A stretch of 64,000 nucleotides of DNA from Candidatus Rokuibacteriota bacterium (GCA_003220315.1 QHSA01000134.1:2759-66758), one strand, 5' to 3'. Shown: positions 6,718 to 23,184, numbered from the stretch's first letter. The notes: generated by a model not told the origin, from the sequence alone. A program made the numbers and translations.

Positions 6718-7659
6718 TCACCGCGGCACCGGGACTTCGTGGGCGATGGCGCGGATGACGGACTCGGCATCGACGCCGCCGTCGCGCGGCCGGCCGGTGG
6801 CGCCCCGCACGAGCACGCGGTGGGCGAGCGCCGGAACGGCGAGCGTCTTGACGTCGTCGGGCACGAGGTAGTCGCGGCCGTCGGCGAGCGCCCACGCGCG
6901 CGCCGCGCGGAGGAGCGCGAGCGCGCCGCGCGGACTCACGCCGAGCGGGAGGAGCGGCGACGCGCGCGTCGCCGCGACGAGCGTCATCACGTAATCGAGG
7001 ATCGGCTCCTCGGCGTGCACGCGCTCGGCCTCCGCCTGGAGGTGGAGCACCTCCTCGACGCCGAGCACCGGGACGAGCGCGTCCGCCGACGGCACACCGG
7101 TGCCGCGCAGGATCGTCTTCTCGTCGCCGCTCGCGGGGTAGCCGATCCGGATGCGCAAGAGGAACCGGTCGAGCTGCGATTCGGGCAACGGGTGCGTCCC
7201 CTCGTACTCGAGCGGGTTCTGAGTCGCGAGCACCATGAAGGGACGCGGCAACTGGTACGTCGAGTGGTCGAGCGACACCTGGGTTTCATTCATCGCTTCC
7301 AGCAGACTCGATTGGGTCTTCGGGGTGGTTCGATTGATCTCGTCGGCCAGGACGATGTTGGTGAAGAGGGGGCCCGGCTTGAAGACGAACGCGCTGCGCT
7401 CGGGCTGCCAGACCGAGACGCCGAGGATATCGGACGGGAGCATGTCGGAGGTGAACTGGATGCGCTGGAAGCCGGCGCCGATGGATCGCGCCAGCGCGGC
7501 GGCCAGCGTGGTCTTGCCGACGCCGGGCACGTCCTCGATCAGCAGGTGACCGCGCGCCACCAGGCCGATCACGGCGAGGCGCACCACCTCCGGCTTGCCG
7601 ACCAGGGCGCGGCCGACGTTCGTCTCCAACCGGCGGATCAGCTCGAGCGCACGGCCCAT
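6718..7659 (-). CDS. moxR: MoxR family AAA+ ATPase
   Basis: EDVPGVGKT, RIQFTSDMLPSD, DEINRTTPKTQSSLLEAM, ATQNP and LPESQLDRF motifs. Confidence 0.93.
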   Translation of the reverse strand: MGRALELIRRLETNVGRALVGKPEVVRLAVIGLVARGHLLIEDVPGVGKTTLAAALARSIGAGFQRIQFTSDMLPSDILGVSVWQPERSAFVFKPGPLFTNIVLADEINRTTPKTQSSLLEAMNETQVSLDHSTYQLPRPFMVLATQNPLEYEGTHPLPESQLDRFLLRIRIGYPASGDEKTILRGTGVPSADALVPVLGVEEVLHLQAEAERVHAEEPILDYVMTLVAATRASPLLPLGVSPRGALALLRAARAWALADGRDYLVPDDVKTLAVPALAHRVLVRGATGRPRDGGVDAESVIRAIAHEVPVPR

Positions 7660-7700: not shown

Positions 7701-8351
7701 TCAGGACGGGCGCGCGAGGCGCGCCTCGGCCCGCTGGGCGAGCCGGGTCAGGGGAAAGCAGATGACGAAGTAGATGGCGGCCGTGACCGTATAGATCTCG
7801 AACGAGCGCAGCGTGCGCTCGATGGTCTCCTGCGCGGCCCGGGTGAGCTCGAAGACGCCGATGATCGCCGCCAGCGAGGTGTCCTTGATCAGAATCGTGC
7901 AGAGGCCGACGAAGGGCGGGATCATGCGGCGGACCGCCTGGGGGACGATCACGTGGCGCATCATGGGGACCCAGCCGAGGCCGAGCGAGCGCGCCGCCTC
8001 GACTTGGCCCGTCGGGATCGACTGGATGCCGCCCCGCACCACTTCGGCGGTGTTGACCATCATCCAGAGGCTCATCGCGAGGACGGCGGCGGGCAGGGTC
8101 GGGAGCCCGACTCCGATCGCCGGCAGCCCGAAGAAGATGAAGAACATCAGGAGCAGGAGCGGGACGGCGCGGACTACCTCGACGGCCCAGCCGATCCCCC
8201 TCCCGACCCCCCGCCATGGCACGAAGCGGAGCACGCCCAGGGTCAGCCCCGCCGCGGTGCCGAGCGCGATCACGGCGAGCGACAGGCCGACGGTGACGAG
8301 CGTGCCGCGGAGGAGGTACGGGAGGCTCTCGAGAACGACGCGGGCGCTCAT
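7701..8351 (-). CDS. polar amino acid ABC transporter permease
   Basis: RAVPLLL, EVVRGGIQSIPTGQVEAARSLGL (EAA motif) and KDTSLA. ATG 8351 overlaps the upstream stop. Confidence 0.9.
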   Translation of the reverse strand: MSARVVLESLPYLLRGTLVTVGLSLAVIALGTAAGLTLGVLRFVPWRGVGRGIGWAVEVVRAVPLLLLMFFIFFGLPAIGVGLPTLPAAVLAMSLWMMVNTAEVVRGGIQSIPTGQVEAARSLGLGWVPMMRHVIVPQAVRRMIPPFVGLCTILIKDTSLAAIIGVFELTRAAQETIERTLRSFEIYTVTAAIYFVICFPLTRLAQRAEARLARPS

Positions 8352-9025
8352 CGCGCCCGGGCCATCCTGCGCTCGGCCAGGTGGAGGGCGCGAGTCAGGG
8401 CCAGCACGAGCAGGACGTAGAGCAGGGCGGCGGCGCCGTAGATCTCGAAGGTGCGGAAGTTGTTGAAGGCAATGTCGTTGGCGACGAACATCAGCTCGAC
8501 CATGCCGATCGTCGAGACCAGCGACGAGTTCTTGACGAGCGAGACAAGGTTGTTGCCGAGGGCCGGGAACGCGATCCGGATCGCCTGGGGAACGATCACG
8601 AACCTCAGGGCGCCGAGCTCGGAGAGGCCGATCGAGCGCGCGGCCTCGTGCTGGCCCCGCGGCACCGCCTCGAGCCCCGCGCGGAAGATCTCGGCGTTGT
8701 ACGCCGCGGCATAGAGCACGAGGGCCGAGAGCCCCGACAGGAAGGGCGAGAGCCGCCACCCGAGCTGCGGCAGCCCGAAGTAGACGATGAAGATCTGGAT
8801 CAGGAGCGGGGTGTTACGGAAGACCTCCACGTACGCCCGCACGAGCGGGCGCGCGAGGCCGCCCCGCACCTCGGTGAGCGCCGCCAGGACGAGCCCCAGC
8901 GCGACCGCCACCACCATGGCCAGGGCCGAGACGAACACGGTGAACGCCGCGCCCTGGAGGAGGTAGGGCAGGCCCCGCCAGACGGCGGACCACGCGAACG
9001 AGTAGGCGGTCGGCCCGGCCGTCAC
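8348..9025 (-). CDS. polar amino acid ABC transporter permease
   Basis: FRNTPLLIQ, EIFRAGLEAVPRGQHEAARSIGL and KNSSL. GTG start at 9025. Confidence 0.9.
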   Translation of the reverse strand: MTAGPTAYSFAWSAVWRGLPYLLQGAAFTVFVSALAMVVAVALGLVLAALTEVRGGLARPLVRAYVEVFRNTPLLIQIFIVYFGLPQLGWRLSPFLSGLSALVLYAAAYNAEIFRAGLEAVPRGQHEAARSIGLSELGALRFVIVPQAIRIAFPALGNNLVSLVKNSSLVSTIGMVELMFVANDIAFNNFRTFEIYGAAALLYVLLVLALTRALHLAERRMARAR

Positions 9026-9828
9026 GGCTTGACGAGGTTCGCCTCCACGTCGGCGAAATACGTCTTCCAGAGCCGGTCGTAGGTCCCGTCCCTCCGCATC
9101 CGCGCGAGCTCCGCGTTCACCCACGTGATGAACGCGGTGTCGCCCTTGCGCACCGCGATGCCGTACGGACGCGGCACGAAGGGCTTGCCGACGACCTTGA
9201 GGTCCGGGTTCTCCTTGGCGAGGCTCAGGATGACGATGTCGTCGTGCACGTAGGCGTCGGCGCGCCCGCCCTTGACCGCCAGGACGGCCTCCGAGACCTT
9301 GCCGAACTTGACCCGGTCGGCCTTCGGCATGAGCTCGGCGACGTCCTTGTCCTGGATGGCGCCCTGGACCACGGCGACGGTCTTCCCCGCCATGTCCTCG
9401 AGCCCGCGGGCCGTCGAGGCCCTGGGCACGAGCAGCAGCGAGCCCGACAGGAAGTACGGCTCCGAGAACTCGACCACCTGACGGCGCTCGTCGGTGATCG
9501 TCACGGTCGCGATGATGATGTCGATCTTCCCCGACTGGAGGAAGGGGATGCGGTTGCCGGAGGTGACCGCGACCAGCTCGACCTGGTTCGCGTCGTTGAA
9601 GAGCGCCTGGGCGAAGCGGTGGGCGACGTCCACGTCGAAGCCGACGTTCCTCCCACTCGCGTCGATCGTCCCGAAGGGCGGGAAGTCGGTCTTCACGCCC
9701 GCGATGAGCTTCCCCCGCTTCTTCACGACCTCGAGCGTTGACTGCGCGTCGGCCGGCCCCGGTCCACCGAGCAGCAGGGCGAGCCCGACCGCCACGGCCG
9801 CAGCGAGTCCGCGTCGCGTCCGTTCCAT
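9022..9828 (-). CDS. polar amino acid ABC transporter substrate-binding protein (family 3)
   Basis: Signal peptide, DFPPFG, GFDVDVA and RIPFLQSGKID. ATG 9828 preceded by GGAGGAGGTG. Confidence 0.9.
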   Translation of the reverse strand: MERTRRGLAAAVAVGLALLLGGPGPADAQSTLEVVKKRGKLIAGVKTDFPPFGTIDASGRNVGFDVDVAHRFAQALFNDANQVELVAVTSGNRIPFLQSGKIDIIIATVTITDERRQVVEFSEPYFLSGSLLLVPRASTARGLEDMAGKTVAVVQGAIQDKDVAELMPKADRVKFGKVSEAVLAVKGGRADAYVHDDIVILSLAKENPDLKVVGKPFVPRPYGIAVRKGDTAFITWVNAELARMRRDGTYDRLWKTYFADVEANLVKP

Positions 9829-9863
9829 GAGCGGCACCTCCTCCGATGGCCGGTGGTGGAGCA

Positions 9864-12173
9864 TCACGCGACCCCGCCGCGCAGGAGCGACTCTGCGCGG
9901 ATCGGGAGTCGCGTCACGCGCACCCCGAGGCCGCGCACGGCGTCGGCGACGGCGTTGGCGATCGCAGCGGGGGCGCCGATCGTGCCCCCCTCGCCCATGC
10001 CCTTGACGCCCCCGGGCGTCACGGGCGAAGGCGTTTCCAGGTGCCAAATCTCGAGCGACGGCACGTCGTCCGCCTTCGGCAGCGCGTAGTCCATCAGCGT
10101 CGCCGTGAGGAGCTGGCCGTCGTCGCCGTAGACGACGCCTTCGAGCAGCGCCTCGCCGATCCCCTGGGCGACGGCGCCGTGGATCTGACCCTCGACGATC
10201 AGCGGGTTGATGACGGGGCCGCAGTCCTCGACGAGGGCGTAGCGCCTGAGTCGGACGCGCCCCGTCTCGCGATCGACCTCGACGACGGCGACGTGCACGG
10301 CGCCGGAGAACGTCGGCCCCGGCGGGTCGAAGTACACGGTGGCCTCGAGGCCCGGGGAGAGCCCGGCGGGAAGCCCGCCCGGCGGCGGCGCGTACGCGAG
10401 ACGCGTGACCTCGCTCAGCATCACCGCGCGATGGGGAGCGCCGCGCACCCACGCTCGCCCCTCCTCGAGCGTCACATCCGAGGGACTGGCCTCGAGGCAG
10501 TGGGCGGCGAGCGCCTGGAGCTTCTCCCTCACCCGCTCCGCCGCCACGGCCGCGCTGCCGAGCATCGAGACGGCGCCGCGGCTCCCAAAGGTCCCGCTCC
10601 CGCGCGGGGCGACGAGCGTATCGACCGCGAGCACGCGGACCGCGTCCATGGAGATGCCGAGGCGGTCGGCGACGAGCTGCGCGATCGTCGTCGCGTGGCC
10701 CTGGCCCTGCGACGGAAAGCTCGTCACGCAACTCACCGTCCCGTCCGCGCCCATCGTCACGGTCGCGGCCTCGATGCCGGGAACGTGGACCATCCCCCGC
10801 CGGCGGAACACGGCGGCGCCCATGCCGGTGTACTCCGTGTAGCACGCGACGCCGACGCCGACGAGACGGCCCGCGGCACGCGCCGCCGCCTGGTCGCGGC
10901 GGAGCCGGTCGTAGTCCACCGCGGCGAGGACCTGCTCGAGCGCCTTGGGGAAGTCGCCGCTGTCGTACGTCATCCCGCTCGCCGAGGTGAAGGGATACGC
11001 CTCGCGCGGGATCAGGTTGCGCCGGCGCACCTCGGCGGGGTCGAGGCCGAGGCGCTCGGCGACCATATCCAGGAGGCGCTCCATGACGAACGCGCCCATG
11101 GTCATCCCGACGCCGCGGTAGGCGCCGAGTGGCGGCTTGTGGGTCAGGACGGTGACGGCCTGGTACTCGTACGCGGGCGTGCGGTACGGGCCCGGCAGGA
11201 TCGCAGCACTCCCGAGTGGCTCGAGGGCGCCGGTGAGCGGGTAGATGTGGTACGCCCCGCCGTCGGACACCGCGCGCGCTCGGAGGCCACGGAGCACGCC
11301 GTCGGCCTCCGCGGCGACCTCGACCTCCATCCGTTGCGCGCGGGCGTGCGACCCCGCGGCGAGGCTCTCGCGACGCTCCTCGACCCACTTGACCGGGCGT
11401 CCGAGCACGCGCGCGGCCGCGGCGACCGCCACGTCCTCAGGAAAGACGTGCGTCTTGAGACCGAAGCCGCCTCCGACGTCGGGCGCGATGACCCGCACGC
11501 GGGTCTCGGGGAGGTCGAGCGCGGCGGCGAGCGCCGCGAGCATGATGGACGGCGTCTGGGTGGAGGCCCACACGGTGAGCGACTCGCCGTCCCAGTCGAC
11601 GAGGACACCGCGCGGCTCCAGGGGCGACGGGGCGCAGCGCCCGTGCTCGAACGTCTCGCGCAGCACCAGCGGCGCGCCCGCGAACGCGCCTTCGACGTCG
11701 CCCCGGCGGTGGTGGCGGCGAAAGAGGACGTGGTCGGCCGCGAGGGCGGCGTCGATCGACACGGTCGCCGGGAGTGGCTCGTACTCGACCCGGACGAGCT
11801 CACGCGCGTCGGCGGCGACCTGCGCGCTCGTCGCCACGACCGCGGCGACGGCCTCGCCGCAGAAGCACGCGCGGTCATCGGCGAGAACGGGCCACGCGGT
11901 CGGCGTGAACCCGTCGCCCTCGAGTCGAGGGTGGAGAGGCCGGGCGACCTGGCGCAGGTCGGCGGCCGTGAGCACCGCGAGGACGCCGTCGAGGCGGCGC
12001 GCGGCGCTCGGGTCCACCCGGCGAATCGCCGCGTGAGCGTGCGGGCTCCGCACGAACGCGAGCGACACCATCCGCGGGAGGACGATGTCGTCGAGGTAGC
12101 GGCCGCGGCCCCGCAAGAGGCGCGGGTCCTCGACGCGCTTGACGCGGGCGCCCGTCAGGCGGGGCCGGATCAC
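9864..12173 (-). CDS. xanthine dehydrogenase family molybdopterin-binding large subunit (CoxL/CutL-like)
   Basis: RVEDPRLLRGRGRY, GGGFGLK, AYRGVG loop, QGQGH, GQIHGAVAQG and KGMGE (catalytic Glu). Confidence 0.9.
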   Translation of the reverse strand: MIRPRLTGARVKRVEDPRLLRGRGRYLDDIVLPRMVSLAFVRSPHAHAAIRRVDPSAARRLDGVLAVLTAADLRQVARPLHPRLEGDGFTPTAWPVLADDRACFCGEAVAAVVATSAQVAADARELVRVEYEPLPATVSIDAALAADHVLFRRHHRRGDVEGAFAGAPLVLRETFEHGRCAPSPLEPRGVLVDWDGESLTVWASTQTPSIMLAALAAALDLPETRVRVIAPDVGGGFGLKTHVFPEDVAVAAAARVLGRPVKWVEERRESLAAGSHARAQRMEVEVAAEADGVLRGLRARAVSDGGAYHIYPLTGALEPLGSAAILPGPYRTPAYEYQAVTVLTHKPPLGAYRGVGMTMGAFVMERLLDMVAERLGLDPAEVRRRNLIPREAYPFTSASGMTYDSGDFPKALEQVLAAVDYDRLRRDQAAARAAGRLVGVGVACYTEYTGMGAAVFRRRGMVHVPGIEAATVTMGADGTVSCVTSFPSQGQGHATTIAQLVADRLGISMDAVRVLAVDTLVAPRGSGTFGSRGAVSMLGSAAVAAERVREKLQALAAHCLEASPSDVTLEEGRAWVRGAPHRAVMLSEVTRLAYAPPPGGLPAGLSPGLEATVYFDPPGPTFSGAVHVAVVEVDRETGRVRLRRYALVEDCGPVINPLIVEGQIHGAVAQGIGEALLEGVVYGDDGQLLTATLMDYALPKADDVPSLEIWHLETPSPVTPGGVKGMGEGGTIGAPAAIANAVADAVRGLGVRVTRLPIRAESLLRGGVA

Positions 12174-12176
12174 GGG

Positions 12177-13169
12177 CTACTGGCGGCCCCGGACCCGCGG
12201 CAGGACTTCGCCCGCGATCAGCTCGAGCTGCTCCATCCCCCAGTTGAGCGGGTTCAGCACGATCGTGTCCACGCCGCCGTCGAGCGCCTCGATCCGGGCG
12301 CTGATCCGCTCCGCCAGCTCCTTGGCTTCGCCGAGCAGGTAATGCGTCGTCCAGTACTCGAGGTCCATGCCCGAGAAGACCGAGAAGTGGGGAATCGCCG
12401 ACTCCGGCGGCTCACCGGGTCTGAGCACCCAGATGAAGTTCGAGTACACCCGCCCGATCTTCGTCGGGTCACGCCCGAGCTCACGGGCGAAGCGCTGCAC
12501 CTTCTCCCAGTCCCCCTTCACCATCGCGGGCGTCGCGGACGAATGCGGCACCCAGGTATCGGCGTACTTCGCGATGCGCCGGAGCACGGGGTCGATGTTC
12601 GTCACGGACTGGCCGTAGACCTTCTCGAACGGCTGCGAGCCGCCGCCGATCCAGATCGGCGGGTGCGGCCGCTGCACGGGCTTCGGATCGATCGTGAGGT
12701 CCCGGACGCGGTAGTATCTGCCCTCGTAGCTCACATGGTCGCCGGCCCAGAGCGCCTTGAGGAGCTCGATCGCCTCGTTCATCCGCGCGCCGCGCTCCCG
12801 GTAGGGCACGCCCATGAGCGCGAACTCCTCCGCGTGCCAACCGACGCCGATGCCAAGGATCGACCGCCCCCGCGAGAGGAGATCGAGCGTCGCCCACTCC
12901 TTGGCGAAGGAGACCGGGTTGCGAAGCGGCAACACCAGGACCATCGTGCCGAGGCGGAGGGTCCGGGTGACGCCCGCCAGGGCCCCGAGGAGCGCGATCG
13001 GCTCGAGCCACGTGCACGCGTACGCGGGCGGCGTCAGCAGGAGGTGGTCGATCGACACCGCGCAGTCGAAGCCGAGATCCTCCGCCCGGCGGAGGTACCG
13101 CCCCATCTCCTCGAGCGTCGCCGTGCGGGGTCCGAGGGCGAACGAGGGGATCCGGAGCCCGTGTCTCAT
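12177..13169 (-). CDS. LLM-class flavin/F420-dependent oxidoreductase
   Basis: GFDCAVSIDH, LGTMVLVLPLRNP, GIGVGW and KPVQRPHPPIWIGG. Confidence 0.85.
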   Translation of the reverse strand: MRHGLRIPSFALGPRTATLEEMGRYLRRAEDLGFDCAVSIDHLLLTPPAYACTWLEPIALLGALAGVTRTLRLGTMVLVLPLRNPVSFAKEWATLDLLSRGRSILGIGVGWHAEEFALMGVPYRERGARMNEAIELLKALWAGDHVSYEGRYYRVRDLTIDPKPVQRPHPPIWIGGGSQPFEKVYGQSVTNIDPVLRRIAKYADTWVPHSSATPAMVKGDWEKVQRFARELGRDPTKIGRVYSNFIWVLRPGEPPESAIPHFSVFSGMDLEYWTTHYLLGEAKELAERISARIEALDGGVDTIVLNPLNWGMEQLELIAGEVLPRVRGRQ

Positions 13170-13738
13170 CGGAGGCCGTCCTCTTTCTTGGCCTCGTCCT
13201 TCGTGAGGCCGCCCACCCTCGGGTGAGGCCGGCCGCCGTCCGTGACGGCGATCGCGAGCACGATCTCGTCGGCGCGCGGCGCGTCGTGGAGCCGTACCTC
13301 CATCGCGTCGTAGTGGGTGCGCACGAACGCCGCGTCCTTGAAGTGGAGCGGGACGTCGATCGTCGTGCCGGGGCCGCCGAGCTTCTTGGCCGAGGGGATG
13401 ATGGCCTTGCCCCCGCCGACCGCCGCGCGAAGGGGCGCGCCGAGCTTCGGATGAAGCAGCGCGGCGGCGTGCTCGTATTCACCGGCCTCGCCGACGACCG
13501 CGGCCTTCCCGTAGGACTCGGCGGGGGCGCCGAGGGCCTCCGTGGCCTTCTTCGCGAGCAGCGCCCCGAGCTCCTCCCCCGCGTCGACGAGCGGCGTGAG
13601 GTCCTCGACGAACTTCCCGGCGAACGGATTCTCGATGACCGCGACCGCCGCGACCTTCCGCACGGGACGCCTCGCGGCCCGCCCGCCGTCGGTCAGGATC
13701 TCCTCCACGACCGTGACGAGCTTCCGGATCTTCACCAT
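13166..13738 (-). CDS. DUF1185 ('amino acid synthesis') family protein
   Basis: IRKLVTVVEE, AAVAVIENPFAG, YGKAAVVG.AGEYEH, SAKKLGGPG and DAPRADEI. ATG 13738. Confidence 0.8.
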   Translation of the reverse strand: MVKIRKLVTVVEEILTDGGRAARRPVRKVAAVAVIENPFAGKFVEDLTPLVDAGEELGALLAKKATEALGAPAESYGKAAVVGEAGEYEHAAALLHPKLGAPLRAAVGGGKAIIPSAKKLGGPGTTIDVPLHFKDAAFVRTHYDAMEVRLHDAPRADEIVLAIAVTDGGRPHPRVGGLTKDEAKKEDGLR

Positions 13739-14979
13739 CGCGTCGAACCCTCCCCGTACCGGTGGAACACGAGACCGTCCAGGAGCTTGGGATAGAAGTG
13801 CGTGGACTTCTGTGGGAGGAGCTCGCCGCTCCGGACCACCGTCTGGAGCTCCTCCGGCGTGGTCGGCGCGATCAGGAAGGCGGCCTGGTACGCACCCGCG
13901 CGCGCCAGGCGGGTCGCCTCCCCCTGATCCGCCGTGTAGTCCACATGGGTCCTGGCGTCGAGCTTGGCGTCGGTGATCCCGAGGAGCGGCTTGAGGAGCC
14001 CCTCGTGGAGAATCGACACCGCGAGCTCGCGCCAGGCGCGCGACGTCCCGGGGGGCCACACAATGGTGTCGAACCCGTCGGGGCGCAGGGTGAGCACGGC
14101 GGCGGCGGACCTGGCGACGACACCGATCGTCCGGTTGGCCGGGCGGAAGTCGAGCGGGTCCGGCAGGGGCGCCACCTCGAACCATCGGCGCGCGGCCCCC
14201 ACGAGAGCGTCGAGATCGAAGCCCTCGACGTTGTGAACGAGCCGGTGGTTCGGGAAGATCGTGAGGCCCGGCGCCTCGAGCGCGAAGAACGCCATCAGCT
14301 TCCCTGCCGCCTCGGGGTGGCGCCGCGCATACTCGACGGCCGTCTCGTACCGGTGGTGCCCGTCGGCGATGAAGACCGGCCGCGGCTCCATCAGCTTCTG
14401 CACGCGCGCGACGCGTGCCTCGTCCGTGATCCGCCAGAGGCGGTGGAGCTCGCCCTGAAGGTCGCGCGCCTCGGCGATCGGCTCGCCCTCGGGCGCCGTG
14501 GCGCGCAGGAGCTCGCCCTCGGGGTCGCTCACCAGCATGAAGAGGAGCCCGAGGTCCGCGCGCGTCGCGGCGAGAAGGTCCAGCCGGTCCCGCTTCGGCC
14601 CCGCGTGGGTCCGCTCGTGCGGGAGCACGCGGCCGTGCGTGTACTCGCTCACTTCGCCCAGCGCGACGAACCCGCGCCGCGTGACCACCTGGCCGGCCAC
14701 ACGGTATGTCTGGGTGTAGGGGTAGATCGCGGGGCGCTCCTCGCGCCGCCAGACCCCGCGCGCCAGCCAGACGTCGAGGACCTCGCGCGCGCGGGCGTAC
14801 TTGTCGACACCCCGCTCGTCCCGGGCGAACGTCACGCGCACGATGTTCTCCGGGCTCATCGCATAGAGACGCTCCTGGCGTTCGGGGCTGATCTGGTCGT
14901 ACGGCGGCGCGACGACCGGCGACACATCGCGGCTCGCGCCGAGGGCGTAGCGGTAGCCGCGGAAAGGCTCGATGTGCAC
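13732..14979 (-). CDS. DUF1015 family protein
   Basis: PFRG, APPYDQIS, LPHERT, FIADGHHRYETA and LPQKSTHFYPKL motifs. Confidence 0.85.
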   Translation of the reverse strand: MHIEPFRGYRYALGASRDVSPVVAPPYDQISPERQERLYAMSPENIVRVTFARDERGVDKYARAREVLDVWLARGVWRREERPAIYPYTQTYRVAGQVVTRRGFVALGEVSEYTHGRVLPHERTHAGPKRDRLDLLAATRADLGLLFMLVSDPEGELLRATAPEGEPIAEARDLQGELHRLWRITDEARVARVQKLMEPRPVFIADGHHRYETAVEYARRHPEAAGKLMAFFALEAPGLTIFPNHRLVHNVEGFDLDALVGAARRWFEVAPLPDPLDFRPANRTIGVVARSAAAVLTLRPDGFDTIVWPPGTSRAWRELAVSILHEGLLKPLLGITDAKLDARTHVDYTADQGEATRLARAGAYQAAFLIAPTTPEELQTVVRSGELLPQKSTHFYPKLLDGLVFHRYGEGSTRW

Positions 14980-14981
14980 GC

Positions 14982-16157
14982 TCAGTGGCCTCCTCCCGCG
15001 GGCCCGTGCCCCTTGACGACCTCCGCGGCGCGCGCCGCGGGTGGCGTGTTGCGGCTCCGACCGACCGTGATCTTACCGTCGATCAGGACCATCGAGATCC
15101 CGGGGAGGTCGCCGGCCGCGAGCGCCGACAGCGCGTCCCGGCCGACCCCGCCGGTCGGCGCGTCGCAGATGACGAGGTCGGCCTCCCGGCCCTCCGCGAG
15201 CGTGCCCCTGCCGAGCCGGTAGACGCGCGCGGTGTTGCCCGTGGCGCACGCGACCGCTTCGGCCGGCGGCAGGCCGCCCACGGCCGCGAGCAGCGAGATC
15301 GTCCGCAGCACGCCCAGCGGGATGACGCCCGTGCCCGAGGGCGCGTCGTTGCCGACGATGATCCGGTGCGTGGCGCGCGCGGCGGTCGCGACGCGGAGCG
15401 TGTGGAGCGCGGTCTTCACGTTCCCGCACTGGACGATCTCGACGGCCATGTCGGTGGCGACGAGCCGCTCGATCTCGGCGGGCGCGAGCGAGGTGGTGCC
15501 GCCGTTGATGTGGCCGACGACGTCGGGGCTCGCCTCGAGGACGACGTCGGCGTCGATGGGGCTCGAGCCGGCGATCGAGGGGCCGCCCGTGTGGATCGTC
15601 ACCGTCATTCCGTGCGCCTTGGCCCAGCGGACCATCGGGGCCGCGTCCTTGCCGGTCTTGACCGAGCCGAGCCCGATCTCGCCGACGAGCGTCACGCCGG
15701 CGGCCGCCATCTCGGCGAAGTCCGACTCGACCATGCCGAGCTCGAGGATGGGCGCGCCCGCATGGACTTTCACCCCGCCGGGCCGGAAGTTCGCGTACGC
15801 CTTGGCGGCGACGATCGCGAGCGCCTTGAGCCCGACGATATCTTTCGGGCGCCCGGGCAGGTGCACCTCCCCCGCCGAGATCGCGGTCGTGACGCCGCCG
15901 TTCATCATCGAGTCGATGAAGTCGACCGTGCGCTGGCGCGGCGTGAAGTCGCCGAACACCGGGTGGACGTGGGAGTCGATGAGGCCCGGCAGCACCGTCG
16001 TCCCATGGGCGTCGATCACGGTGTCCGCGTCGTCGTCGAGCCCGCGGCCGAGCCCGACGATCGTTCCGTCCCGGATCACCAGCGAGTCGCCGTCCAGGAG
16101 CGGGCGCCGGATGTCCCCGCTCACGAGCTGGCCGATGTTTCGAATGAGCGTCTTCAT
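14982..16157 (-). CDS. enamidase-like amidohydrolase
   Basis: PGLIDSHVHPVFGDFTPRQ; binuclear-site residues HxH, GEIG, TIHTGG, GHINGG, GNDAPSG match the enamidase subfamily pattern. Confidence 0.8.
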   Translation of the reverse strand: MKTLIRNIGQLVSGDIRRPLLDGDSLVIRDGTIVGLGRGLDDDADTVIDAHGTTVLPGLIDSHVHPVFGDFTPRQRTVDFIDSMMNGGVTTAISAGEVHLPGRPKDIVGLKALAIVAAKAYANFRPGGVKVHAGAPILELGMVESDFAEMAAAGVTLVGEIGLGSVKTGKDAAPMVRWAKAHGMTVTIHTGGPSIAGSSPIDADVVLEASPDVVGHINGGTTSLAPAEIERLVATDMAVEIVQCGNVKTALHTLRVATAARATHRIIVGNDAPSGTGVIPLGVLRTISLLAAVGGLPPAEAVACATGNTARVYRLGRGTLAEGREADLVICDAPTGGVGRDALSALAAGDLPGISMVLIDGKITVGRSRNTPPAARAAEVVKGHGPAGGGH

Positions 16158-16843
16158 ACGCTGAGGTACGCCCTCCGGAGGGAGAGGTCCGCGTCCAGAC
16201 GCGCGAACGGCCCCTCGAACTTGATCTGCCCCTTCTCGATGATGTAGGCGCGGTCGGCGAGCCGCCGGGCGAACTTCACGTTCTGCTCCGACAGCAGAAT
16301 CGTCAGCCCGCTGCCCTTGAGGGCCGCGATGTTCTCCGCGAGCGCGCGCACGACCACCGGCGCGAGCCCCTCCGACGGCTCGTCGAGCAGCAGGAGCCGG
16401 GGGCAGGTCATCAGGGTCCGGGCGATCGTCAGCATCTGCTGCTCGCCACCCGAGAGGCTCGCGCCGCGCCGACCGGCGAGCTCTCGCAGCTTCGGGAAGA
16501 GCGCGAAGACGCGCTCGAGCGTCCAGGGACCGCCCGGCCGCTCACCGACCTCCAGGTTCTCGACCACCGTGAGGTCGCCGAAGATGCGTCGGTCCTCGGG
16601 CACGAGGCCGATGCCGGCACGGGAGATCTCGTGGGTCGGGAGCCCGCGCAGCGACCGTCCCGCGTACAGGATCTCGCCTCCCGTCACGTCCACGAGCCCG
16701 ACGATGGCCCGGAGCGTCGTCGTCTTGCCGGCGCCGTTCCGGCCGAGCAGCGAGACGACCTCCCCTTCCCGCGCCGCCAGGTCCACGCCGTACAGCACGT
16801 GACTCCGACCATAGTAGGCGTGGACCTGGCGGAGCTCCAGCAT
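16154..16843 (-). CDS. livF: branched-chain amino acid ABC transporter ATP-binding subunit
   Basis: GRNGAGKT, LSGGEQQ and LLDEPSEGLAP. ATG 16843 in a TGATG overlap (alternative GTG at 16855). Confidence 0.88.
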   Translation of the reverse strand: MLELRQVHAYYGRSHVLYGVDLAAREGEVVSLLGRNGAGKTTTLRAIVGLVDVTGGEILYAGRSLRGLPTHEISRAGIGLVPEDRRIFGDLTVVENLEVGERPGGPWTLERVFALFPKLRELAGRRGASLSGGEQQMLTIARTLMTCPRLLLLDEPSEGLAPVVVRALAENIAALKGSGLTILLSEQNVKFARRLADRAYIIEKGQIKFEGPFARLDADLSLRRAYLSV

Positions 16844-17601
16844 CACGTCGCCCACGCCGCCTCCCCCAGGTACACCGCCTGGACCTCCGGGTCGGCGCGC
16901 ACCGTGTCCGGCGCGCCCTCCGCGATGACGCGCCCCTGATGCAGCACCATGACGCGCTCCGCGACCGTGAAGACGACGTCCATGTCGTGTTCGGTGAAGA
17001 GCACCGTCAGTGTCCGCTCGCGCGCGATCGACGCGGTGAGCGCCATGAGCGCGCCCCGCTCCGCCGGGGCCATGCCGGCCGTCGGCTCGTCGAGCAGCAG
17101 GAGCTCGGGGTCGTTCGCGAGCGCGATCGCGAGCTCGAGCTTCTTGAGGTCGCCGTAGGCGAGGACGCCCGCCGGCCGCCCGGACTGCTCGGCCAGTCCG
17201 ACCTGCGCGAGGAGCGCCAGCGACCGCTCGACCTCGAGGCCGCCCGCCGGCCGTAGGAGCGCCCGGCTGCGTCTCGTGTGCGAGAGGCGGGCGACCTGCA
17301 CGTTCTCGAGCGCGCTGAGCGTGGCGAACGTCGCGGTGATCTGGAACGTGCGGCTCACGCCGCGCCGCCAGATCGCGTGCGGCGCGAGCCCCAGGATCTC
17401 CTCCCCGCGGTACGCGACCGCGCCGTCGTCGGCGCGGAGCAGGCCGGCCAGGATGTTGAAGAACGTCGACTTGCCGGCGCCGTTCGGGCCGATGAGCGCG
17501 CGGATCTCGCCGCGCGCCAGGTCGAAGCTCACGCCGTCGACCGCACGGACACCGCCGAACGCCTTACGGACGTCGACGACCCGGAGCAGCGGCTCAGGCA
17601 C
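16843..17601 (-). CDS. livG: branched-chain amino acid ABC transporter ATP-binding subunit
   Basis: GPNGAGKST, RTFQ, LAYGDLKKLE, LLDEPTAG and EHDM. GTG start at 17601. Confidence 0.88.
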   Translation of the reverse strand: MPEPLLRVVDVRKAFGGVRAVDGVSFDLARGEIRALIGPNGAGKSTFFNILAGLLRADDGAVAYRGEEILGLAPHAIWRRGVSRTFQITATFATLSALENVQVARLSHTRRSRALLRPAGGLEVERSLALLAQVGLAEQSGRPAGVLAYGDLKKLELAIALANDPELLLLDEPTAGMAPAERGALMALTASIARERTLTVLFTEHDMDVVFTVAERVMVLHQGRVIAEGAPDTVRADPEVQAVYLGEAAWAT

Positions 17602-19423
17602 GACGGTCTCCGACCACGCCAAGAATTCCGCGCGGGAAGGCCAGCACGAGCAGGATCAGGATGGCGCCGAGCACGAGCTGCCAGTACTCCGTGTACCTCG
17701 TCGCCACCGTGTCGAGGAGCTTGTAGATCGCCGCCCCCACTGGCGCGCCCGCCGGCGCCTGCACGCCGCCGAGCAGCACCATCACGAGCGGCTCCACCGA
17801 CATCGGCACCGCCAGGAGGTTGGGGAACACGCTGCCCTTCAGGAACGCGAACGTGCCCCCGGCGACGCCGCCGAAGAACCCCGCGACGACGAACGCCGTC
17901 CACTGGTGGAGCCGGATGTTGATCCCGACCGTCTCGGCGCGCCGGGCGTGGTCCCGGGCGGCCCGGAGCGTGAGGCCGAACGGCGCCCGCCCGATGCGCG
18001 CGAGGAGGGCGATCCCCCCGCCGCACGCGGTGAGCGCCAGGTAGTAGTAGGCGAGCGGTCCGGCGAGCCACGCGGCCGGCCAGATGCCGAGCAGGCCGTT
18101 GTCGCCGCCCGTGACGTCGTACCACTGGTGGACGATCGCGAAGGCGATCTGGGCAAAGGCGAGCGTGAGCATCGCGAAGTAGATGGACGACAGGCGCACG
18201 CAGAAGTAGCCGTAGAGGGCGGCGCCCACGGCGGCGGCCAGGGGCGCGGCGGCGAACGCGAGGAGCATCGGCGCCTTCGTCCACGTCACGAGCAGCGCCG
18301 CGCCGTAGGCGCCGAGGCCGAAGCTGGCGGCGTGGCCGAACGACACCATCCCGCCCGTGCCCATGAGGAGGTGGAGGCTCGCGGCGAACAGCGCGAAGGC
18401 GAGGATCTCCACGAGCACCCAGACGTGGAACGTCGGCAGAAAGGGCGGCACGGCGATCAGCGCGGCGAGGACGGCGGCCAGCCACCGTGGCGGGACGCGA
18501 ACGGTGCCCGCCGTGACGATCGCGCCCCCTGCGGTCCGCTGCTGGACCTCGGGCCGCCCGAGCAACCCCCACGGCCGCACGATCAGGACGACCGCCATCA
18601 CGACGAACGGCACCACGAGCGACGCCCGCGGGAGCACGAGGACGCCGAACGCGTCGATGACGCCGATGAGGGCCGCGGCGAGCAGCGCGCCGGGCACGGA
18701 ACCCATGCCGCCGACGACGACCACCACGAACGCCTCGGTGATGATCGACGCGTCCATCACGTTGGTCAGCGCCTGCCGCGGCACCTGGAGCGCCCCGCCG
18801 AGCCCCGCCAGGAACGAGCCCAGGACGAAGACGGAGGTGAAGAGGCGCGCCTGGTCGACGCCGAGCACGGCGACCATTTCTCGGTCCTGCGTCGCCGCGC
18901 GGATCAATACACCCCACCGGGTCCGGTAGAACAGCCACCAGAGGCCGGCCGCGACGAGCGGCCCCAGCCCGATCAGCGCGAGGTCGTACGTCGGGAAGAG
19001 CTGGCCGGCGATCTCCACCGAGCCGGCGAGTCCTGGCGCAGCCGGGCCCGTCAAGTTCTCGCTGCCCCAGAAGAGCTTCACCACGTCGGCGACGACCAGC
19101 ACCAGCGCGAACGTGAGGAGGAGCTGGTAGAGCTCGGGCGCCCGGTACACGCGTCGCAGGAGGGCCACCTCGACGCCGAGGCCGGCCAGGCCGACCGACG
19201 CCGCGGCCAGCAGCACGGCGACATAAAACGCGGCGGCGCCGAGGGGCAGGGTCGCGGCGAGCGTGTAGGTCAGGTACGCGGCGAGCATGTAGAAAGAGCC
19301 GTGGGCGAAGTTGACGATGCGGGTGACGCCGAAGATGAGCGAGAGCCCCGACGCGATGAGGAAGAGGACCATGGCGTGCGCCAGGCCCGACAGGAGCTGG
19401 ATCAGGACGAGCGACGGTGACAC
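17594..19423 (-). CDS. fused LivH-LivM branched-chain amino acid ABC permease
   Basis: N-half has GLSLIFG...NFAHG (LivH); C-half has GMVSFGHAA and LTLAFAQ (LivM); one ORF of 609 aa. Confidence 0.88.
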   Translation of the reverse strand: MSPSLVLIQLLSGLAHAMVLFLIASGLSLIFGVTRIVNFAHGSFYMLAAYLTYTLAATLPLGAAAFYVAVLLAAASVGLAGLGVEVALLRRVYRAPELYQLLLTFALVLVVADVVKLFWGSENLTGPAAPGLAGSVEIAGQLFPTYDLALIGLGPLVAAGLWWLFYRTRWGVLIRAATQDREMVAVLGVDQARLFTSVFVLGSFLAGLGGALQVPRQALTNVMDASIITEAFVVVVVGGMGSVPGALLAAALIGVIDAFGVLVLPRASLVVPFVVMAVVLIVRPWGLLGRPEVQQRTAGGAIVTAGTVRVPPRWLAAVLAALIAVPPFLPTFHVWVLVEILAFALFAASLHLLMGTGGMVSFGHAASFGLGAYGAALLVTWTKAPMLLAFAAAPLAAAVGAALYGYFCVRLSSIYFAMLTLAFAQIAFAIVHQWYDVTGGDNGLLGIWPAAWLAGPLAYYYLALTACGGGIALLARIGRAPFGLTLRAARDHARRAETVGINIRLHQWTAFVVAGFFGGVAGGTFAFLKGSVFPNLLAVPMSVEPLVMVLLGGVQAPAGAPVGAAIYKLLDTVATRYTEYWQLVLGAILILLVLAFPRGILGVVGDRRA

Positions 19424-20637
19424 TAATTCCCGACGCGCATCTTCTTCACCTCGTCATCGGACGGGAGCACGCGATCGCCCGGGATGTACTCGTAGTTGAC
19501 CATGATGCCGACACCGCGCTTGGCGTCGAGCTTGGTGGTGCCGACCCACGCGCCCATCGTCGACTGGCCGTCCGACGCCCGGAAGCTGATCGGCCCGATT
19601 GGCGTCTCGACCTTGAGCCCCCGGAACGCGGCGACGAGCTTGTCGGTGTCGGTCGAGCCCGCCTTCCGGATCGCCTCCGCGATGGAGAGGTACGTGATGT
19701 AGCCGACCAGCGAGCCGAGCACGGGGTTCTTATCCGTGCGCTTCGTGAACTTGGCGACGAACTCCTTGTGCGCGGGGAGCTGGAGGTCGTACCAGGGGTA
19801 ACCCGTCACGAGCATCCCCTCGGGCGCCTCGAGCTTGAGCGGATCGATGTACTCGGGCTCGCCGAGCAGGATGCCCACGACGAACATCTTCTTGAAGAGT
19901 CCGCGCTTGTCCGCCTCGCGGACGAACGCGATCCAGTCGCTCCCGAACAACGAGACGTAGAGCGCGTCGGGGCTCTCTCCGAGGATCGCGGTCACGAACT
20001 GGCTCGGCTCGATCTTGCCGAGCGTCGGCCAGTGCTCGCCGACGGTCTGCGCCTCGGGCCGCAGCTCCTTCAGCCGGTCTCGGAACGTCTCCCAGGCCCG
20101 TTTGCCGTATTCGTAGTTCGGCCCGATCGCCGCCCACTTCGTGTACTTGAGCTTCGCCGCCTTCTCCGCCAGCATGCGCCCCTGCTCGTAGGTGTTGGGA
20201 CGCACCCGGAAGACGTGATCGTGGCCCTTCGCCCACGTGAGCGCCTCGGTGAGCGGCTCCGCCGCGACGAAGAGGACCCGGTTCTGCTTGGCCCAGTCCG
20301 AGACCGCGAGACCGACGTTCGACAGGAACGTCCCCGAGATCAGCGCGACCTTCTCCGACGCCACCAGCTCCTGCGCGTGCTTCTGCGCCTCGGCGGGCTG
20401 GCCCTTGTCGTCGCGGAAGACGACCTCGAGCTTCCGGCCGAGCACGCCGCCCTTCGCGTTGACCTCCTCGACCGCCATCTCGACCGCCTGCCGGTACGGT
20501 CCGGTGAACGGGGCGCCGATGCCGCTGAACGAGTTGATCTCCCCGATCTTGATGGGCGCCTGCGCGGCGACAGGCGCGGCGAGCGCCGTGAGGAGCAGGA
20601 GAGTCCCGAGCGTGGCGGAGACACGGTGTCGTCTCAT
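19423..20637 (-). CDS. branched-chain amino acid ABC transporter substrate-binding protein (LivK/UrtA-like)
   Basis: Signal peptide, IKIG, GGVLGRKLEVVFRDD and TDTDKLVAA. ATG 20637 with GGAGAG upstream. Confidence 0.88.
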   Translation of the reverse strand: MRRHRVSATLGTLLLLTALAAPVAAQAPIKIGEINSFSGIGAPFTGPYRQAVEMAVEEVNAKGGVLGRKLEVVFRDDKGQPAEAQKHAQELVASEKVALISGTFLSNVGLAVSDWAKQNRVLFVAAEPLTEALTWAKGHDHVFRVRPNTYEQGRMLAEKAAKLKYTKWAAIGPNYEYGKRAWETFRDRLKELRPEAQTVGEHWPTLGKIEPSQFVTAILGESPDALYVSLFGSDWIAFVREADKRGLFKKMFVVGILLGEPEYIDPLKLEAPEGMLVTGYPWYDLQLPAHKEFVAKFTKRTDKNPVLGSLVGYITYLSIAEAIRKAGSTDTDKLVAAFRGLKVETPIGPISFRASDGQSTMGAWVGTTKLDAKRGVGIMVNYEYIPGDRVLPSDDEVKKMRVGN

Positions 20638-20730
20638 GGCGAGCCTCTCCATGGTGCGGGTAACTGTCGGACCAAAGCACGGCGAAGTCAAGCGCCGGAC
20701 CGGCAGTGCGAGCCGCCGGCGAGGCGAGTC

Positions 20731-23184
20731 TCAAGGAGCCGCGCCCTCCGCCGTGCCGACCGTTCCGACGACTGCGCCGCGCGCGTCGCGCACGAGCGCC
20801 ACGCAGGTGTCGATCTCGGCCCAGCCGCCCGCCTTCTTCCGGAACGTCGTCCGGTAACCCGGCACGCGCGTCTCGGCGCGGAGCCGGCGCATGAGCGCCC
20901 GCGCCTCGTCCATCCCGCCCTTGTAGAAGTCGCTGACGTGCCGCCCGAGGAGCTCCTTCGCCTCCCAACCGCAGACCTTCTCGGCCAACGCGCTGAAGTA
21001 GGTGATCCGCCCGTGGACGTCTGTCGTCAGCACGGTGTCGGCTCGATTCGCGACGACGGATCTCAGGAAATCGTGCGCATGGCTCGCCTCCTCGTGGAGC
21101 CGGGCGCCGGCCAGCGCCACCGCGGCCTGGTCGGCGAACGCCTCCGCAAGACGGATCTCCCGCGCGTCGAAGACGCGGCCCGCCCGGGCGCCGACGGCCA
21201 GGGCGCCGATGACCGTCCCCCGCGCGATCAGCGGGACCGCGAGCCCGGCGCGCACCGTCCCGAGCTCGATCCGGGCGCGCACCTCGGGCGTGTAGCCGAC
21301 GCGGGGATCGGCGAGAACGTCGGCCGAGAAGACGGCGCGCCGCTCCCGCATGGCGAGCTCGACCAGGCCCGTCCCGGGCGGCAGGTTCCAGTCGAACTCG
21401 TCTTCCTCGTTCGATCGGGCGACCGCGATCATCGCGCCGGAGCCCGGCTCGAGCTGGTAGAGCAGGGCGACGGTTGCGTCGAAGAGCTGTCGCACGCCGT
21501 CGGCGATCCGATGCGCGAGCGCGTCGCGATCGAGCGATCGGGCGAGCAGGCGGCTGACCTCGGCGAGCGTCCGGGTGGCCTCGGCGGCGCGCTTGGACTC
21601 GGTGATCTCCACCATGACGCCGTGCAGCCGGCGGACCACACCGTCATCGTCCGTGACGACGTGGACGAAGTCACTGAACCACACGACGCGGCCGTCGGCC
21701 GCGATCATCCGGTACTCGAGCTCGTGATCCTCGCGCGAGACGGGCTCGAGCCGCATCGTGAGGAAGCGCACGCGATCGTCGGGATGGAGGTGGCTGAGCC
21801 AGAAATCGCCCTCCGTGTACCAGCGCTCCACGGGATAGCCCAGGATCTTCTCGGCCGCGTGGCCCACGTAGATGGTGCGCCACGTCGCCGCGTCGACCTC
21901 CCAGACGATGGCGGTCAGGTCCTGCGCGAGGTTCCGCAAGCGTCGCTCGGAGTGGGCGGCGGCCGCCTGGGCGAGCGCCTTGCCCTGCTCGGTCTCGTGG
22001 AAGCGCCGCGCGTTCTCGAGCGCGAGCGCCGCCGTGGCGCCGAACCCCGTCAGAAGCCCCAGCTCCAGCTCCGAGAACTCCCGCTCCGTGCTCGACGCGA
22101 GCGACAGGGCGCCGAGCACCTCGCCGCGCGAGACGAGGGGCACCGCAACGACCGACTTGTGGCCCTCGACGGCCGCGCGCTCGCGGAGCCACGCCGGCAG
22201 GTCGACTCGCGGGTCGGTCGTGACGTCGCGCGCGGCGACCGGCCGGCACTCTTGGACCGCGAGCGCCGCGACGCTCGCCCCCGCCGGGATCATCCGCCCC
22301 GTCCACTGGGCGTCGCCGTGCTCGCCGGCGGTGGCCACGCAGAGGAGGTTGCCGGAGGTTCGGTCGAGCTCGAAGAAACAGGCGCGGTCGACGCGGAAGT
22401 GGTGCAGCACGGCGGTCACGACGCGCGCGGTCGCCTCCTCCAGGTCGAGGGTGCCGACCAGCTCGTGGCCGACGCGCGCGAGGGCGGTCGTGGCTTCCTC
22501 CGCTTGCTTTCGCTCGGTGATGTCGCGCACGATCATGAGGAGCTGCCGCTGGGCACCGCTCTCCACGGGGAGGGGGAGGAGCCGCGCCTCGTAGCGCTTT
22601 GCGCCCAGCGCAAACTCCGTCGACACGGGAGACGGCGCGTCGAGGAACTGGCGGAGCGCCGCCTCGAGCCTGAGCCCCGACGCCGACGGGAACACGTCCG
22701 CGATCTTCTTGCCCCGAGCCAGCTCGAGCGAGACGTCGAAGCTCCCGCCCGATCCGCCCTCGTAGGCGAGAACCCTTCCCTCGGTGTCGAGCCACACGTA
22801 GAGGTCGGGGAACGCGCGGAAGATGGCCTCGAGCTCGGCCTCGAGCCTCACCAGCTTGCTCGTCACGTCCCGCAGACGCGCGAAGTCGATGATCTGGGCG
22901 CCGCGCCGCGGACCCCGCGTCGCGTCGACGGCGTCGAGGGCGTCGCGACGTGTGGGGGAACCCGTCCCGAACATGACCCATTCGGGGGGAACCTCGAGGT
23001 CGCGTGCGAGCCGGGCGAGGTTGTCGTAGGTCGGGATCCGGTCGCCCAGCCAGGCATAGAGGTACTGGGGCCGGTAGTCTCTCTCGCTGCAGAACCGGCC
23101 CACGTCGGGTCGGCCGTCTTTCCAGTAACCGAGCGCCCTCAGGCGCTGCCTGACCCGCTGGCCGACCCCGGGGAAACGGCTCAT
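20731..23184 (-). CDS. HTH(XRE-like)-PAS-GAF-PAS-GAF-PAS multi-sensor protein with no kinase or cyclase domain
   Basis: N-term YLYAWL...PTYDNLARLARDLEVPPEWVMFG; PAC-like motifs RDITERK and VEITESKR; two GAFs (VVAVPLVSRGEVLGAL, LAVPLIARGTVIGAL); ends just after the last PAS. Confidence 0.75.
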   Translation of the reverse strand: MSRFPGVGQRVRQRLRALGYWKDGRPDVGRFCSERDYRPQYLYAWLGDRIPTYDNLARLARDLEVPPEWVMFGTGSPTRRDALDAVDATRGPRRGAQIIDFARLRDVTSKLVRLEAELEAIFRAFPDLYVWLDTEGRVLAYEGGSGGSFDVSLELARGKKIADVFPSASGLRLEAALRQFLDAPSPVSTEFALGAKRYEARLLPLPVESGAQRQLLMIVRDITERKQAEEATTALARVGHELVGTLDLEEATARVVTAVLHHFRVDRACFFELDRTSGNLLCVATAGEHGDAQWTGRMIPAGASVAALAVQECRPVAARDVTTDPRVDLPAWLRERAAVEGHKSVVAVPLVSRGEVLGALSLASSTEREFSELELGLLTGFGATAALALENARRFHETEQGKALAQAAAAHSERRLRNLAQDLTAIVWEVDAATWRTIYVGHAAEKILGYPVERWYTEGDFWLSHLHPDDRVRFLTMRLEPVSREDHELEYRMIAADGRVVWFSDFVHVVTDDDGVVRRLHGVMVEITESKRAAEATRTLAEVSRLLARSLDRDALAHRIADGVRQLFDATVALLYQLEPGSGAMIAVARSNEEDEFDWNLPPGTGLVELAMRERRAVFSADVLADPRVGYTPEVRARIELGTVRAGLAVPLIARGTVIGALAVGARAGRVFDAREIRLAEAFADQAAVALAGARLHEEASHAHDFLRSVVANRADTVLTTDVHGRITYFSALAEKVCGWEAKELLGRHVSDFYKGGMDEARALMRRLRAETRVPGYRTTFRKKAGGWAEIDTCVALVRDARGAVVGTVGTAEGAAP

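Follow-up and report, generated by a model that had tools for sequence, protein, structure and literature searches.

A 64,000-nucleotide stretch of Candidatus Rokuibacteriota DNA (GCA_003220315.1 QHSA01000134.1:2759-66758; hereafter the window) carries, on its minus strand at 9864-20691, an operon for a Liv-type ABC importer, an enamidase (Ena), a DUF1015 protein, a DUF1185 protein, an oxidoreductase of the LLM family and the large subunit of a molybdenum (Mo) hydroxylase. From genomic comparison, we propose that this operon specifies the upper steps of the reductive nicotinate pathway, which runs via 6-hydroxynicotinate (6-HNA) and 1,4,5,6-tetrahydro-6-oxonicotinate (THON), with two of its enzymes replaced by unrelated ones. 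In Firmicutes and Proteobacteria, the ring is reduced to THON by 6-hydroxynicotinate reductase (Hnr), an Fe-S flavoprotein with a UPF0280/ApbE-like partner. Our favoured reading, which we hold with moderate confidence, is that LLM is an F420H2-dependent 6-HNA reductase that displaced Hnr. The reductive nicotinate pathway is already known; what would be new here, if confirmed, is the exchange of LLM for Hnr. An earlier note on this DNA had suggested a variant pyridine pathway with a flavin or F420 reductase, and the absence of Hnr, the complementary distribution of LLM and Hnr, and a full set of F420 genes lend support to such a pathway.

The comparison was anchored on an Eubacterium barkeri-type nicotinate cluster (L005; loci are labelled in the form L###), which was recovered with 2vun as the search query and a subsequent contig look-up. 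Its gene order is LysR, a 499-residue Fe-S protein, an ApbE-like/UPF0280 protein, Hgd, NdhF, NdhS, NdhL, NdhM, a permease, Ena, DUF1185, Mgm and further genes. The 499-residue protein is Hnr, because its 90%-identity cluster contains HNR_EUBBA, and it served as the Hnr query. A scan of one genome per species yielded 80 enamidase loci, to which L005 and L006 were added, and the resulting 82 neighbourhoods were screened by tblastn with the window proteins and the E. barkeri-type proteins. Co-occurrence of LLM and enamidase across genomes had been put forward in the earlier note as a check. Beside Ena-DUF1185 we found either LLM (52 loci) or Hnr, usually with UPF0280 (13 loci), and in no case both. 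UPF0280 is present in 12 of the 13 Hnr-type loci and in none of the 52 LLM-type loci, Hgd in seven and none, respectively, and an NdhS-like gene in 12 and one (likewise, a single LLM-type locus has an NdhS- or NdhF-like gene near LLM), whereas a lone QorL-like Mo subunit adjoins LLM in 41 of the 52 and is found in no Hnr-type locus. Most of the 17 untyped loci end within a few kilobases of ena, and two fragments fit the pattern, in that an LLM gene begins at the contig edge in L067 and an Hnr gene in L076. When the open reading frames (ORFs) of the 52 LLM loci were clustered, neither a further conserved redox gene nor an Fe-S or FAD subunit emerged.

LLM is kept in the same position, at 57-93% identity, throughout these 52 loci from two phyla. 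Orthologs with at least 57% identity were confined to LLM-type genomes, where all of them lie beside Ena, the sampled ortholog contexts containing Ena-DUF1185 in six cases out of six; Hnr-type genomes hold no LLM match above 39% identity. The distribution of UPF0280 fits that of an Hnr-specific maturation factor, for example a flavin transferase. Examples of UPF0280/ApbE-like genes lie at L005:2824-3672, L100:7704-8633 and L101:5045-5893.

The earlier note was correct that the window encodes no Hnr, and the absence extends to the whole genome and to the phylum. In the window genome (4.26 Mb, 98% complete), which the earlier note had proposed to search for hnr, the query retrieved no homolog but only ferredoxin motifs at E 0.03 or weaker, and none of 251 genomes of the phylum gave a match at E 1e-10 or better. 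An enamidase is present in 154 of these genomes, and the type described here in about 100. The genomes of the LLM-type loci L073, L091 and L103 likewise gave no match to Hnr. The presence of hnr elsewhere, which the earlier note had named as part of a refutation of its reading, was thus not borne out. As a positive control, Hnr was found at 46-59% identity in four Hnr-type genomes; in the genome of L084, Hnr is present but far from ena.

We infer from family membership and gene context that the cofactor of LLM is F420 rather than FMN. LLM scores 209.4 bits against TIGR03619 (F420-dependent LLM class, Rv2161c family), for which the cut-off is 166.9, and its AF2 model is a TIM barrel (pLDDT 86.5). 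The window genome, which has 39 LLM paralogs, encodes CofC, CofD, CofE, CofG and CofH on contig C256, with cofD and cofH above their cut-offs. Among the genomes tested, cofD was found in all ten of the LLM type versus one of eight of the Hnr type. The strongest single item for F420 is the gene order in L103, an Acidobacteria-type metagenome-assembled genome (MAG), in which Ena, DUF1185 and LLM are followed immediately by Fno (F420:NADPH oxidoreductase), CofE, CofD and CofC. There is chemical precedent for such a role: hydride transfer from F420H2 allows LLHT enzymes to reduce the aromatic picrate ring, and enones and enoates are likewise reduced by F420H2 (PMC8498797). The Fht/Npd picrate reductase of Rhodococcus and Nocardioides, which we compare by description (PMC8498797), shares with LLM the TIM-barrel LLM fold, the proposed F420H2 hydride chemistry and the proposed role of ring hydride transfer as the first catabolic step on an electron-poor aromatic or conjugated ring. 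It differs in that the substrate in the window would be a 2-pyridone carboxylate rather than a nitroaromatic, and in that the hosts are Rokubacteria or Acidobacteria rather than Actinobacteria. Our literature search found no paper linking F420 or LLM to the reduction of 6-HNA.

The identity of the pathway rests on three parts orthologous to those of known nicotinate clusters, namely Ena, DUF1185 and the binding protein. The last of these shares 50% identity with its counterparts in the Hnr-type clusters on the Comamonadaceae plasmid CP099606 and the Sulfitobacter plasmid pSpoCB-1, and its best paralog in its own genome reaches 29% identity; the window protein would be expected to bind nicotinate or 6-HNA. 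The closest solved binding protein is PDB 3i45 (E 1.6e-117). Nicotinate or 6-HNA is also the most likely substrate of the cluster as a whole, on account of the binding-protein identity and two variant loci. The first, L073, belongs to a related or sister family in the same phylum and combines a Liv-type ABC transporter, NdhF-S-L-M, Ena, DUF1185, a CoA-transferase-like protein and LLM (L073:6373-14490). Its split Ndh is of the E. barkeri type (42-43% identical), and this hybrid arrangement indicates that hydroxylase and reductase have been exchanged independently of each other. The second, L105, has an isochorismatase-family gene (L105:5274-5999) between DUF1185 and LLM, and a GntR regulator in front. 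The isochorismatase family includes nicotinamidase, and the L105 variant suggests that nicotinamide may also serve as a feedstock.

Ena matches the solved enamidase 2vun over its full length (residues 2-380, E 3e-132) and shares 56% identity with an E. barkeri-type Ena, more than 130 alignment columns being invariant. By this measure the window amidohydrolase is a true enamidase homolog, and we propose that it hydrolyses the THON ring to 2-formylglutarate and ammonia. A second enamidase paralog, Ena2 (53% identical), is encoded on contig C256:19900-31500 (locus L098) in a cluster with a Liv-type binding protein, an HpaB-like flavin monooxygenase, a Mo large subunit, a FAD subunit, an Fe-S subunit (detected by tblastn), a second Mo large subunit and a transglutaminase. 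The Ena2 cluster on C256 has no DUF1185, and many of the phylum's genomes encode an enamidase of the Ena2 type.

DUF1185 shares 60% identity with the copy directly after ena in L005 and 62% with one of the pair in the Comamonadaceae cluster. It is present in all 65 typed loci and is paired with Ena wherever the flank suffices, and its role is probably to deal with the ring-opening product. Adjacency of DUF1185 and enamidase is seen in Firmicutes, Proteobacteria (with two copies), Rokubacteria and Acidobacteria-type loci (L005:10703-11284; L100:6427-7691). TgnF, a DUF1185 homolog, is reported to stimulate an aldehyde dehydrogenase that acts after ring opening (PMC7913881). Compared by description (Perchat et al. 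2018 via PMC7913881), TgnF of the Acinetobacter baylyi trigonelline (N-methylnicotinate) pathway resembles the window protein in being a DUF1185 protein of a pyridine-carboxylate cluster, and differs in that ring opening there is oxygenolytic, not hydrolytic. The 'amino-acid metabolism' label of the family in PMC2954203 rests on Liv-type ABC neighbours. Since a Liv-type transporter is also the transporter of nicotinate clusters, the name 'amino acid synthesis' is doubtful, and AA_synth is probably a misnomer.

DUF1015, which the earlier note had listed with the other genes of the operon, was not borne out as a pathway member. The family is described as SerBK-like putative kinases (bioRxiv 10.1101/2024.10.14.618325). 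It occurs in 23 of the 52 LLM-type loci, and the window genome has a single copy. Orthologs are found in genera that have only the other enamidase paralog and are absent from two genera that do have the cluster (g7 and g11), and the position of the gene varies by genus, either between ena and DUF1185 or elsewhere in the genome. DUF1015 thus lies outside the conserved core, and we rejected it as a pathway enzyme because it is distributed independently of this type of enamidase; its placement looks lineage-specific and not required by the pathway. The possibility that DUF1015 and DUF1185 together form a split Hnr was also discarded, as the best BLASTP match between Hnr and DUF1015 has E 4.8 and the E. 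barkeri-type cluster has a separate DUF1185. Likewise, the in-frame TGA of many DUF1015 matches is not a selenocysteine codon but the gene's ordinary stop codon, across which the alignment had continued.

For the other putative replacement, we propose that the Mo enzyme is a nicotinate 6-hydroxylase. The domains PF01315, PF02738 and PF20256 (a hammerhead and two MoCo-binding domains) match the subunit end to end. Its best solved relative is QorL, the large subunit of quinoline 2-oxidoreductase (1t3q_B, a full-length match of 599 bits), which introduces a hydroxyl group into an N-heteroaromatic ring at the position adjacent to the nitrogen; the Fe-S and FAD subunits of Qor are encoded alongside, whereas about 41 loci here have none in cis. 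The window genome contains about 20 Mo large-subunit genes but only about 10 for [2Fe-2S] subunits and about 6 for FAD subunits, and in the C256 cluster two Mo large subunits stand beside a single Fe-S and a single FAD subunit. This imbalance would mean that subunits are shared or that some of the large ones act alone. A MoxR-DUF58-TgpA trio directly follows the Mo subunit in L105 (9298-12987) and L106 (9304-13163), and in about 11 of the 52 loci; in the window, the trio lies downstream of the Mo subunit, after extra ABC genes. CoxD, a MoxR-like ATPase, matures the active site of CO dehydrogenase, and by analogy the trio might mature the lone Mo subunit.

Taken as a pathway, the operon would work as follows. 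The Liv-type ABC transporter would import nicotinate or 6-HNA, and the Mo enzyme would hydroxylate C6. LLM would then pass a hydride from F420H2 to C4 of the 2-pyridone ring, with protonation at C5, to give THON, which the enamidase would open to 2-formylglutarate and ammonia. DUF1185 would act with the enamidase or just after it, and F420H2 would be regenerated elsewhere, for example by Fno. The Acidobacteria-type loci have an aldehyde dehydrogenase gene just upstream of Ena, the product of which would take the aldehyde.

A number of observations weigh against this assignment. Identity of the Mo subunit to NdhL/NdhM is low, at about 30% (132 bits against NdhL), and the operon contains no genes for the Fe-S and FAD subunits of a Mo enzyme; given this low identity and the lack of partners in cis, nicotinate is no more than a candidate substrate of the Mo enzyme. 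Foldseek places SfnG, SsuD and luciferase alongside Mer, Fgd and Adf among the top fold neighbours of LLM, all at about 22% identity. Matches of LLM to PDB sequences likewise mix F420 and FMN enzymes, and PMC8518648 provides no simple fingerprint in the sequence by which to tell the LLM cofactor. We therefore set aside structure as a means of settling the cofactor, as fold neighbours do not separate F420 users from FMN users. As cofD occurs in 195 of the 251 genomes of the phylum and is thus near universal there, its presence in LLM-type genomes amounts to consistency, not proof. Three loci depart from the common arrangement: L032 is an isolated Ena-DUF1185 pair among unrelated genes (L032:11204-15652), in L036 the Mo subunit directly follows DUF1185 (L036:13636-14602), and in L063 a deletion has left a 63-residue LLM remnant and a truncated DUF1185 (L063:6274-6914). 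A few short soil metatranscriptome contigs match the operon, too thin a record to speak for co-transcription. Finally, the LLM or Hnr label requires only two changes on the Ena tree, one for the Rokubacteria clade(s) and one for the long-branched Terriglobia locus L091. With two tree changes and nearly all loci in one phylum, the 52 LLM loci are not independent events, and the evidence consists of about two evolutionary events together with functional logic rather than 52 independent observations.

The taxonomic spread of the LLM type also needed correction. L045, L051, L063 and L086 are listed by NCBI as Acidoferrum, Deferrimicrobiaceae, Binatia and Verrucomicrobiia, respectively, and were considered as representatives of other phyla. 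Their contigs have coordinates identical to ones in genomes of the window's phylum, to which they belong, and the NCBI labels of these four MAGs are unreliable. Independent lineages are represented only by the Acidobacteria/Terriglobia-type loci L091, L102, L103 and L107.

Rather than reducing the ring, LLM could act after ring opening, on 2-formylglutarate or the enamine, which is the job of Hgd in E. barkeri, while an unlinked enzyme of the old-yellow-enzyme or FDOR type reduces the pyridone. Most of the F420-dependent LLMs characterised so far act as dehydrogenases on alcohols, aldehydes or sugars (Adf, Fgd, hydroxymycolate dehydrogenase), and such enzymes are among the structural neighbours of the model. 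The occurrence of Hgd in Hnr-type loci and its absence from LLM-type loci would also suit such a role, and the many LLM paralogs mean that other reductases are plentiful in the genome. However, Hgd is dispensable, being absent from six of the 13 Hnr-type loci and from both proteobacterial clusters, whereas Hnr is always kept. It is Hnr with UPF0280, not Hgd, that alternates with LLM. Furthermore, the Acidobacteria-type loci have their own aldehyde dehydrogenase beside Ena, and the 52 loci offer no other conserved redox gene. A role after ring opening is thus unlikely.

It is also conceivable that the cluster degrades another N-heterocycle or a lactam, which the QorL-like Mo subunit would hydroxylate, with LLM as an FMN monooxygenase or a reductase of another ring, and with the Ena homolog opening a related cyclic enamide. 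The Mo subunit is closest to QorL and far from NdhL, the fold and PDB matches of LLM are compatible with FMN monooxygenases, and the Ena family has diversified in the genome, where the 53% paralog stands beside an HpaB-like oxygenase. Against this, the binding protein and DUF1185 are 50% and 60-62% identical, respectively, to their counterparts in bona fide Hnr clusters, L073 joins Ena, DUF1185 and LLM to an E. barkeri-type split Ndh, and L105 adds an isochorismatase-family gene. The operon also has no flavin reductase partner, LLM scores above the F420-family cut-off, and its ortholog in L103 abuts F420 genes. On these grounds we consider another substrate rather improbable.

Within the favoured reading of LLM as the 6-HNA reductase, a variant would have the Mo subunit and LLM form a redox-neutral couple that converts nicotinate and water to THON without an Fe-S/FAD subunit or an external carrier. 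Two electrons or a hydride equivalent would be drawn from nicotinate at the Mo centre and passed via the deazaflavin or flavin of LLM to the newly formed 6-HNA. Such a couple would explain why the genes for the Mo subunit and LLM stay together both in Rokubacteria and in Acidobacteria-type loci, as well as the lack of a small or medium subunit in about 41 loci; even so, we rate it as very improbable. Least credible of all is that nothing replaced Hnr, the cluster being incomplete or fed by imported THON-like compounds or abiotic chemistry and LLM a mere passenger: L032, L036 and L063 do lack an intact LLM beside Ena-DUF1185, but a passenger would hardly be kept at such identity (57-93%), in the same position and with tight junctions in 52 loci of two phyla, nor would every sampled ortholog adjoin Ena.

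Set beside the known systems, the proposed pathway keeps the logic of the E. barkeri route while differing in its parts. Alhapel et al. reportedly described in 2006 a nicotinate fermentation cluster of E. barkeri made up of NdhFSLM, Hnr, Ena, Hgd and later genes. The sequence of Mo hydroxylase, ring reduction and hydrolytic opening is shared, as are Ena and DUF1185 at the identities given above. In the window, LLM stands in place of Hnr and its UPF0280/ApbE-like partner, a lone QorL-like subunit in place of the four-subunit Ndh, and a Liv-type ABC transporter in place of the permease, and the downstream genes Hgd, Mgm, Mii and Dml are missing. An Hnr-type cluster has also been described for Azorhizobium caulinodans and Bradyrhizobiaceae SG-6C (PMC3511419), and the two plasmid clusters match it. 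CP099606 and pSpoCB-1 carry Hnr, UPF0280, two DUF1185 genes, a Liv-type ABC transporter, a Mo hydroxylase, a ferredoxin-NADP reductase and Ena. Hnr is annotated as 6-hydroxynicotinate reductase on CP099606 and is a 495-residue hypothetical protein in the same position on pSpoCB-1. These proteobacterial clusters resemble the window operon in the aerobic host, the Liv-type importer (its permease is fused on CP099606, where the gene spans 1893 nt, and fused also in the window), the binding protein (50% identity), Ena (54-58%) and DUF1185 (62%). They differ in having kept Hnr, UPF0280, the ferredoxin-NADP reductase, a multi-subunit Mo hydroxylase and two DUF1185 genes, whereas the window has LLM, a single DUF1185 and a Mo large subunit on its own.

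The gene map (Table 1) was drawn from listed ORFs, from Pfam and NCBIfam matches and from the gene calls of identical metagenome contigs, and all genes named in the earlier note were found where it had placed them, on the minus strand. The second ABC set that it had described held in part: an SBP_bac_3 protein and two permeases are encoded at 7701-9864, but no ATPase gene accompanies them.

Table 1. Operon and flanking genes in the window, in order of transcription
Feature	Position	Strand	Basis
PAS/GAF multi-sensor protein, possible regulator	20731..23184	-	Pfam PAS_4, PAS_3, GAF, PAS
LivK-type periplasmic binding protein, Liv-type ABC importer	19423..20691	-	Pfam Peripla_BP_6, 2e-77
Fused LivH-LivM (LivHM) permease	17594..19423	-	two BPD_transp_2 stretches (Pfam)
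LivG-type ABC ATPase	16843..17622	-	Pfam ABC_tran, BCA_ABC_TP_C
LivF-type ABC ATPase	16154..16855	-	Pfam ABC_tran; NCBIfam LivF/UrtE-like
Enamidase (Ena), amidohydrolase	14982..16157	-	PDB 2vun match, E 3e-132
DUF1015 protein, accessory	13732..14979	-	Pfam DUF1015, 2e-71
DUF1185 (Pfam AA_synth)	13166..13738	-	PDB 2qtp match, E 1e-73
LLM/LLHT oxidoreductase	12177..13169	-	TIGR03619, 209.4 bits
Mo-hydroxylase large subunit, CoxL/QorL type	9864..12173	-	Pfam Ald_Xan_dh_C, MoCoBD_1, MoCoBD_2
SBP_bac_3 binding protein, accessory	9022..9864	-	Pfam families of contig record
Two polar-amino-acid-type permeases, accessory	8348-9025 + 7701-8351	-	Pfam families of contig record
MoxR AAA+ ATPase	6718-7659	-	Pfam
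DUF58 protein	5536-6540	-	Pfam
TgpA-like transglutaminase	3458-5533	-	Pfam

The genes from the binding protein to the Mo subunit form a single operon, since neighbouring genes overlap by 1-13 nt or are separated by gaps of 2-3 nt (LivHM and LivG overlap by 8-29 nt, depending on the LivG start). The start of ena overlaps the end of livF by 4 nt, and LLM overlaps DUF1185 by 4 nt and is separated from the Mo gene by 3 nt. An alternative call of the binding protein, with 404 residues, begins at 20637, the position at which the stretch described in the earlier note ends. The SBP_bac_3 and permease genes are translationally coupled to the Mo gene, and a close match is found only in L013, a close relative. 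On the other side, the PAS/GAF gene lies 40 nt upstream of the transporter genes; its homologs occur only in the nearest relatives, L012 (89%), L017 (53%) and L077 (44%), which places it outside the conserved core. The G+C content of the window is about 71%, and the nearest relatives of its enamidase are named Candidatus Rokubacteria/Methylomirabilota.

If LLM is indeed the 6-HNA reductase, a second, unrelated enzyme would exist for the dearomatising step, with a hydride-transferring deazaflavin enzyme taking the place of a ferredoxin-fed Fe-S flavoprotein, and an F420-dependent enzyme that acts as a pyridone ene-reductase would be of practical use in biocatalysis. The analysis also shifts DUF1185 from 'amino acid synthesis' to the catabolism of pyridine rings. 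According to a 2021 review, no physiological role of F420 had been tested experimentally outside the Actinobacteria (PMC8498797). The proposed pathway would give F420 a concrete catabolic function in Rokubacteria and Acidobacteria and, as far as our literature search showed, would be, if confirmed, its first catabolic job in the abundant soil phylum to which the window belongs. As the cluster is common in this phylum, it may matter for the turnover of pyridines from plant exudates and necromass.

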